In this document: in pieces, positions 31,535-33,441 of the stretch
How positions within the stretch are numbered: the first letter of the stretch is position 1
Layout of the letters: every line of letters begins with the position of its first letter
Translations under genes and position numbers: made by a program
Source of the DNA: Escherichia coli
GTDB lineage: Bacteria; Pseudomonadota; Gammaproteobacteria; Enterobacterales; Enterobacteriaceae
Length of the DNA: 64,000 nucleotides
Direction: 5' to 3' (one strand)
Assembly (NCBI RefSeq): GCF_030013205.1
Contig: NZ_CP122648.1
Notes under the pieces: model-generated
Seen by the model: only the letters and a program-made list of their open reading frames with translations
Told to the model about the DNA's origin: nothing
Databases searched by the model: none

Positions 31535-31798
31535 TCAGGCGCGGATTTGTTGTGATGTGGTTGTGCTCTGGCAGATGGCAACGTGTGCGACGTCCACCAG
31601 TTTATTTAACTGACTAAACAGTAAGTCGACCGACCGTGGGCTGGCAACGGTCAATTCGATATTTATATTTTGTGCATCGCTGGCGGCGGCCATATTCATT
31701 GAGCAGACGTGGAAACCACGATGACGCACCACGCGTAAAACACGTTCTAAGGTTTCCGGATTGAAGCGAGCCGATACATTGACCTGATGTTGCATCAT
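31535..31798 (-). CDS. ilvM: acetolactate synthase II small subunit
   Basis: 87-aa [25 protein letters not shown]... Confidence 0.9.
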
Positions 31799-33441
31799 GA
31801 TAATTTCTCCAACATTTCTGAATTACTGGCACCTGGCGGCACCAGCGGCCAGACGTTCTCAAGTTCGTCGATTGAGACATGAAGCAGGTATGGCCCATCA
31901 CTGTTCAGCATGGTGTCGAGTGCCGCTTCAACCTGGTCTTTACGGGTGATGTGTTGGCCAGGGATGCCGAAGGCGCTGGCTAACATGAGGAAATCGGGGT
32001 TATCAGTAAGGGTTGTTTCGCTGTATCGTTCCTGGAAAAACAGTTGCTGCCATTGTCGAACCATCCCTAACCGTTGGTTATCGAGTAAGACGATTTTCAA
32101 CGGTAACTGCTTGCGTTTTACGGTGCCCAGCTCTTGCACATTCATCATGAAAGAGCCGTCACCGGAGATACAGACGACGGTATCGTTCGGTCGCGCGACT
32201 TGCGCGCCAACCGCCGCAGGTAAACCAAAACCCATGGTACCTAAGCCGCTGGAGGTGATGAAATTTTCCGGACGAGTGTGGGCGATGTGCTGCGCAGCCC
32301 ACATCTGGTGCTGCCCCACATCTGTGGTCACGACGCAATCCGCAGGTTTACGATCCGACAGTTGTTTTAACAACAACGGCGCGTAGATAGCGTCACCGGG
32401 ATGGTCGTAGCGCCAGGTATGTTCATCAAGCAGCTGCGCGCAGTATTGCTGCCAGTCATTGATATTTAACGGCTGCTGTAATGCTGGTAACAGAGCATTT
32501 AAATCACCCTGTAATGCCACATGTGCCTGACGCAGCTTGTTCATTTCTGCCGGGTCGATATCCATATGGATAACACTGGCGAGTGGTGCGAAGGTGTTCA
32601 GTTTGCCGGTCACCCGGTCATCAAAACGTGCACCCACGGCGATCAGCAAGTCGCACTCCTGAACCGCGAAGTTCGCCGCTTTGGTGCCGTGCATTCCCAG
32701 CATGCCCAGATAGTACGGATAATCTGCTTCAACTGCGCCCAGCCCTTTCAGCGTGCAGGTGGCAGGCATTTTTGTGGTAGCGAGAAATTCACGCAGAGCG
32801 GGAACTGCCTGCGCCATGCCCACGCCACCGCCAACGTACAGCATCGGTTTTTGCGCCTTTGCCAGCATCTGGCGCGCTTGCTCGACTTCGGCATGTGGGA
32901 AATTCACTTCGTTTTCAACGGTGGTGAACCATGGTTCCAGATCGCCGCTGGCTAACTGGATATCTTTTGGGATATCGACCAGAACCGGACCAGGACGACC
33001 TGAGCTGGCAACGTCGAATGCTTCAGCCATGATGCGCGGCAACTCTTCCAGCGACTGCACCAGAAAGCTGTGCTTGGTACAGGCTAATGACAATCCCAGT
33101 ACATCCACTTCCTGAAATGCGTCAGTGCCGATAAACGGTGCAGATACCTGACCGGTGATGGCAACGACAGGGATGGAATCTAACAGTGCGTCCGCAAGCC
33201 CGGTTATCAGGTTGGTTGCACCTGGACCAGACGTGGCGATACATACGCCAGTTTTGCCGGTAGCACGGGCATAACCGATAGCCGCCATTGCTGCACCTTG
33301 CTCGTGTCGGCACAGCAAGTGTTCCACGCCACCGTCATACAATGCATCGTAAACCGGCATAATTGCGCCACCCGGATAACCGAAAACGGTGTTCACACCC
33401 TGTGCCCGCAACGCATGTACCACCCACTGTGCGCCATTCAT
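31795..33441 (-). CDS. ilvG: acetolactate synthase II large subunit, intact
   Basis: uninterrupted 548-aa TPP-enzyme ORF, 4-bp overlap with ilvM. Confidence 0.9.

Follow-up and report, generated by a model that had tools for sequence, protein, structure and literature searches.

The window, a stretch of 64,000 nucleotides of Escherichia coli DNA (contig NZ_CP122648.1 of assembly GCF_030013205.1), carries the ilv operon in the order ilvL-ilvX-ilvG-ilvM-ilvE-ilvD-ilvA. This gene order was confirmed against MG1655 and against two genomes from pigs, K_EC180 (a swine isolate from Korea) and ETEC4079 (a pig isolate from Belgium), and the operon is intact. The coordinates of its genes and regulatory features, together with those of the other loci discussed below, are collected in Table 1.

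Table 1. Features of the ilv operon and of other loci in the window.
Feature	Position	Strand	Description
rffC	10920-11594	-	
wecC	11635-12897	-	
ilvA	27124-28668	-	Biosynthetic threonine deaminase, last operon gene; 514 aa, three amino acid differences from K-12
ilvD	28671-30521	-	Dihydroxy-acid dehydratase; 616-aa ORF, three amino acid differences from K-12
ilvE	30586-31515	-	Branched-chain aminotransferase; same protein sequence as K-12 IlvE; gene also annotated in K_EC180 and ETEC4079
ilvM	31535-31798	-	Small (regulatory) subunit of AHAS II, 87 aa; NF008362 equivalog, 133.9 bits (cut-off 68); Pfam ACT_5
ilvG	31795-33441	-	Catalytic (large) subunit of acetohydroxy-acid synthase (AHAS) II; 548 codons plus stop, ATG start
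ilvX	33444-33494	-	16-codon small ORF between attenuator and ilvG; sequence identical to K-12 ilvX
ilv attenuator	33525-33558	-	G+C-rich hairpin followed by eight T (GACCCCCGCACCGAAAGGTCCGGGGGTTTTTTTT, coding strand); from alignment
ilvL	33581-33679	-	Leader peptide, 32 aa, rich in Ile, Leu and Val codons; NF007744 equivalog, 77.4 bits (cut-off 59)
ilvL-yifB intergenic region	33680-34031	-	Expected to include the ilv promoter and its upstream activating region
yifB, split locus	34032-50265		Fragments 34032-34203 and 48901-50265
14.7-kb integrase-borne element	34204-48900		
Imperfect 16-bp direct repeat around the element	34188-34203 and 48901-48916		ATTATCAATAGCGGAT / ATTATAAATAGCGGAT

Integrity and identity of ilvG

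The sequence-only reading had described ilvG as a single uninterrupted ORF of 548 codons coupled to ilvM, and both statements held. The six-frame ORF listing and its translation gave the gene a terminal stop only; the coordinates and the codon count were correct, and we add the minus strand, which had been left unstated. Re-inspection of the ORF at 31795-33441 found no frameshift, and neither a hidden frameshift nor an internal stop appeared in the translation or in the alignments to K-12 and to five other alleles. The stop codon of ilvG (TGA, 31797-31795) and the start codon of ilvM (ATG, 31798-31796) overlap as ATGA at 31795-31798, as is typical of translationally coupled genes. The IlvM protein is identical to that of K-12, and the IlvX peptide is annotated at the corresponding place in K_EC180 and ETEC4079.

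The product of the ORF is a member of the expected enzyme family. It matched the NCBIfam equivalog model NF006524 ("acetolactate synthase 2 catalytic subunit") with 1069.5 bits, where the curated cut-off is 738, and the alignment pairs residues 1-547 with positions 1-547 of the 548-position model. Three Pfam domains of ThDP-dependent enzymes are present, each covering its whole profile: PF02776 (TPP_enzyme_N) at 1-115, PF00205 (TPP_enzyme_M) at 186-321 and PF02775 (TPP_enzyme_C) at 374-522. Because the equivalog match runs nearly end to end and the three domains are full length, a chance match is no issue. The protein retains E47, F109, Q110, K159, M250, R276, V375, M460 and W464, and the ThDP-Mg motif GDG...N is kept, with GDG at 427 and DN at 454-455. 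These are positions reported to matter in AHAS II by mutagenesis work: E47 (as the catalytic glutamate), F109, Q110, K159, M250, R276, V375, M460, W464 (specificity) and the GDG...N motif.

An indel error in sequencing or assembly could make a truly frameshifted gene look intact, and long-read assemblies are known to contain indel errors in homopolymers, although nothing specific to ilvG here points to one. Against such an artefact, the ilvG DNA is 100% identical to the copy in K_EC180, and the protein, WP_001600750.1, is annotated as a complete CDS both there and in the independently assembled ETEC4079. Moreover, the length of 1647 nt is that of every non-K-12 allele among the matches listed, and the protein aligned without gaps to the five other alleles. 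We regard this explanation as practically out of the question.

Comparison with K-12 and with other IlvG alleles

That the locus is not K-12-like, as had also been proposed from the letters alone, was borne out by alignment with the MG1655 locus, in which ilvG is annotated as pseudogene b4488: the 2-bp deletion of K-12 is missing here, and about 3.2-3.3% of the ilvG bases differ. The alignment contained 52 substitutions and one 2-base gap in K-12, which lacks the AT found here at gene positions 977-978 (TTAAATATCAATGA vs TTAAATCAATGA; aligned K-12: TTAA--ATCAATGA), and the K-12 frame therefore runs into a stop (TGA) at codon 328. When the K-12 frame was restored in silico, eight residues differed between it and the IlvG of the window (C146S, T180N, A222T, H287L, H333Y, R338L, S342T and H494P), compared with 44 synonymous codon differences. 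This ratio of 44:8 indicates purifying selection on ilvG.

An intact ORF would also be seen in a K-12 derivative with a repaired ilvG, either a spontaneous valine-resistant revertant or an engineered ilvG+ strain. Such strains exist, as frame-restoring single-base deletions in ilvG were selected in MG1655 (PMC8605374). We rejected this origin for the window, as ilvG alone carries the 52 substitutions and the divergence from K-12 is 3-6% from ilvG to rep. Furthermore, the gene has the natural sequence, longer by 2 bases, rather than a compensating 1-base deletion, and the swine isolate K_EC180 matches the window at 99.93-99.99% identity everywhere but in the 14.7-kb insertion.

We compared seven IlvG alleles, those of the window, K-12, E. 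coli B, O157:H7, a B2 APEC strain, NRZ14408 and W619. Protein identity was 99% to B, O157:H7, NRZ14408 and W619. In this comparison S146, T222, Y333 and P494 are all common among natural alleles; at position 494 histidine is private to K-12, and every other allele has proline. N180, L287 and T342 were common only to the IlvG of the window and its nearest allele, NRZ14408. We considered damaging substitutions in IlvG and set them aside: of the eight residues that differ from K-12, seven occur in other natural alleles, and L338 alone is private to the window among the seven. At the DNA level the allele is rare, as only 19 of 5425 genomes have at least 99% identity to it.

Leader, attenuator and upstream region

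The leader and the attenuator are intact. The attenuator hairpin and its T-run are identical in seven strains (that of the window, K-12, B, O157, APEC, NRZ14408 and W619), and the isolated attenuator is predicted to fold to -21.6 kcal/mol. A simple consensus scan for promoters and terminators failed to pick up the coding-strand attenuator, and its promoter-like matches did not exceed the shuffled expectation; the attenuator and the promoter region were read from the alignment to K-12 instead. The leader and attenuator (33461-33750, minus strand) matched Rfam family RF02744 with 157.5 bits (gathering score 88). This family, named "Rev39_5p_UTR", was described from soft-rot Enterobacteriaceae and, given the match, appears to correspond to the ilvL leader.

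The leader peptide differs from that of K-12 by a single base, GCC to GTC in codon 3 (33671-33673, minus strand), which changes alanine to valine (A3V) and raises the number of its Val codons from 6 to 7. Using a diagnostic 36-mer, we found A3V in 17 of 5426 complete genomes, all of them porcine (O139:H1 and ETEC strains). With this base change, the minimum free energy predicted for the leader goes from -68.5 to -66.2 kcal/mol and the predicted pairing upstream is different; the terminator stays unchanged. Because of A3V and the shifted leader fold, quantitative regulation of the operon could differ from the textbook case.

Upstream of ilvL, the 352-bp intergenic region differs from K-12 by 13 substitutions and is identical to that of K_EC180, the closest genome free of the island; the identity to that genome holds for the 600 bases upstream of ilvG. 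The promoter-proximal haplotype is common to O157, APEC IMT5155 and NRZ14408 and differs from those of K-12 and B.

Even with an intact ORF, the enzyme or its expression might be impaired by R338L, by A3V or by the 14.7-kb insertion in yifB, which would make the strain less valine-resistant than expected. R338L is private among the alleles compared, A3V is confined to the 17 porcine genomes and changes how the leader is predicted to fold upstream of the terminator, and the integrative element begins upstream of ilvL, 524 bp from its start codon. However, position 338 lies in a variable linker between the end of the Pfam central domain (321) and the start of the C-terminal domain (374), within the most variable stretch of the alleles compared (positions 328-342), and the 44:8 ratio indicates selection for function. 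A3V merely adds one regulatory Val codon, and none of the three changes touches the terminator hairpin or the intergenic promoter region. A disturbance of the ilv promoter by the element is likewise unlikely, with the intergenic region equal to that of K_EC180 and the listed island genes pointing away from the operon, save one small annotated ORF (YlcI/YnfO family). Impairment by any of the three changes is thus improbable, if somewhat less so than an assembly error.

Lineage of the window and the diverged ilv-rep block

Only ETEC4079 matches the 14.7-kb insertion from end to end at 100% identity. Judged by this match and by that of the remaining sequence to K_EC180, the window is of the porcine ETEC/oedema-disease lineage.

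Most of the window differs from K-12 by 1-2%, but divergence is higher in a block at about 21445-33441 that holds rep, ppiC, ilvC, ilvY, ilvA, ilvD, ilvE, ilvM and ilvG. Within the block the differences from K-12 amount to about 3.3% for ilvC, ppiC and rep, 4.4% for ilvD, 5.8% for ilvA (a nucleotide identity of only 94.2%) and 6.0% for ilvY. The ilvA and ilvY genes overlap by 4 bases here, compared with a spacer of about 51 bp in K-12. Across the species, 88% of E. coli genomes match the ilvA-ilvY segment at an identity of about 94%. Identity lies in the range 90-95% for 4760 genomes and reaches 99% or more in just 113, so that the allele seen here is the outlier, and hence the lineage carries a rare, deeply diverged ilvA-ilvY haplotype. 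The block is probably an old recombinational import. That its donor was a divergent Escherichia lineage and that the haplotype tunes attenuation or branched-chain amino acid flux adaptively in the pig gut is a speculative extension, to which we assign little weight.

Other loci in the window

The yifB gene, which adjoins ilvL and encodes a ComM-like Mg-chelatase ATPase, is split after about codon 57 by the 14.7-kb integrative element. It is a reported target of integrative elements (PMC7192596). The element encodes a P4-type tyrosine integrase, an AlpA-like HTH protein, an AntA-like protein, Icd-like proteins and a RepA/AAA_25 helicase, as well as a ProQ/FinO protein, a PerC-family regulator, a NUDIX hydrolase, a DUF2213 protein and a lytic transglycosylase of 679 aa. 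This predicted gene content is of a satellite/PICI-like make-up. At least 80% of the element was covered in only 2 of 5426 genomes, and its relatives reside at other chromosomal sites.

The enterobacterial common antigen cluster lacks rffG and rffH, which encode dTDP-glucose 4,6-dehydratase 2 and glucose-1-phosphate thymidylyltransferase 2, respectively. At the junction (11594-11635, minus strand) wecC and rffC are separated by a clean 38-bp spacer with a separate ribosome-binding site for rffC, which here starts with ATG; in K-12 rffC uses a GTG inside rffH. The same junction is found in 116 of 5426 genomes, human isolates included, and is therefore a recurrent natural variant. Presumably rmlA and rmlB, elsewhere in the genome, supply the dTDP-sugar precursors.

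The counterpart of yifN, a pseudogene in K-12, appears intact at about 23684-24133 (plus strand), and K_EC180 annotates it as a type II toxin of the PemK/MazF family. If it is intact here, yifN is another locus of which K-12 has a defective copy.

Frequency of intact ilvG in E. coli

All but one of 5426 complete E. coli genomes (5425) contain ilvG. A 32-mer spanning the K-12 deletion junction was found in 340 of the 5426, and among the matches listed every genome with this junction is a laboratory derivative of K-12 (MG1655, DH5-alpha, JM109, HB101, MC4100, J53 and others). A 34-mer with the intact site was found in 3495 genomes and left about 1590 uncounted, of which a variant of this 34-mer matching B2 strains recovered a further 1237. 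By these two queries the intact site is present in at least 4732 of the 5426 genomes; about 350 fall outside all three junction queries, presumably on account of other SNPs in the flanks. Intact ilvG is the species norm, ancestral and near-universal in E. coli. To call the locus "not K-12-like" carries little information, because the K-12 deletion is limited to the 340 genomes, those listed all being laboratory derivatives.

Discussion

We conclude, with a probability of roughly 0.9, that the ORF is the ordinary functional wild-type ilvG of a natural E. coli of the porcine ETEC lineage, with activity, valine insensitivity and growth on valine expected from published work. The K-12 frameshift in ilvG has been textbook knowledge since 1981. 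The intact state of the gene was already known and matters little; it is useful only as a sanity marker that the DNA is from a natural isolate and not from a K-12 laboratory strain.

The proposed function follows the established scheme of the pathway. IlvG, together with the translationally coupled IlvM, would form AHAS II, an enzyme expected to use thiamine diphosphate, FAD and Mg2+ as cofactors and to condense pyruvate with either pyruvate or 2-ketobutyrate, the first step shared by the valine/leucine and isoleucine pathways. The ilvLXGMEDA operon would be expressed under multivalent attenuation by the leader peptide rich in Ile, Leu and Val. External valine would stop AHAS I and III, and AHAS II would still supply isoleucine precursors, because it is free of valine feedback inhibition, so that the strain should grow on minimal medium with valine.

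Published work on orthologous alleles supports this scheme. Valine inhibits AHAS I and III but not AHAS II; MG1655 fails to grow with added valine, whereas its frame-restored ilvG derivatives grow at 1 mg/ml (PMC8605374). In E. coli B, intact ilvG "mediates valine resistance" and accounts for growth on valine dipeptides (PMC3446290), and the gene is intact also in W, B and Crooks (PMC3032704). The frameshift of K-12 is in addition polar on ilvEDA, a polarity that is relieved by frame restoration (PMC8605374). Resistance of the strain to valine, put forward by the sequence-only reading, is accordingly the phenotype that we would expect, and we consider it a sound inference from these studies of other alleles. 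Since ilvG here has no premature stop, no polarity of the K-12 type on ilvEDA is expected. Our prediction is a routine one: the strain would grow on minimal medium with valine and would be free of that polarity.

Among the closest known systems is the pseudogene b4488 of MG1655, an orthologous locus with the same flanking genes and 96.7% nucleotide identity, which differs by the 2-bp deletion and the premature TGA at codon 328, both missing here. Others are the IlvG proteins of natural and non-K-12 laboratory E. coli, such as those of E. coli B (WP_001012606.1) and O157:H7 (WP_001012623.1), which have the same length of 548 aa and differ from the IlvG of the window by a handful of substitutions (99% identity); their genes occupy the same place in the operon, after ilvX and before ilvM, whose start codon overlaps the ilvG stop. 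O157:H7 also shares the promoter haplotype of the operon described here, while B has that of K-12. The solved structures listed in a sequence search were full-length matches, with E values from 4e-161 (6LPI) to 6e-145; no E. coli IlvG chain was among them, and the closest were other AHAS isozymes. These include E. coli AHAS I IlvB (PDB 6LPI) and the plant and yeast enzymes (e.g. 1YBH and 1N0H), which belong to the same ThDP/FAD-dependent fold family and, unlike IlvG, are paralogues or orthologues of other isozyme classes: AHAS I is sensitive to valine and its partner is IlvN, not IlvM.
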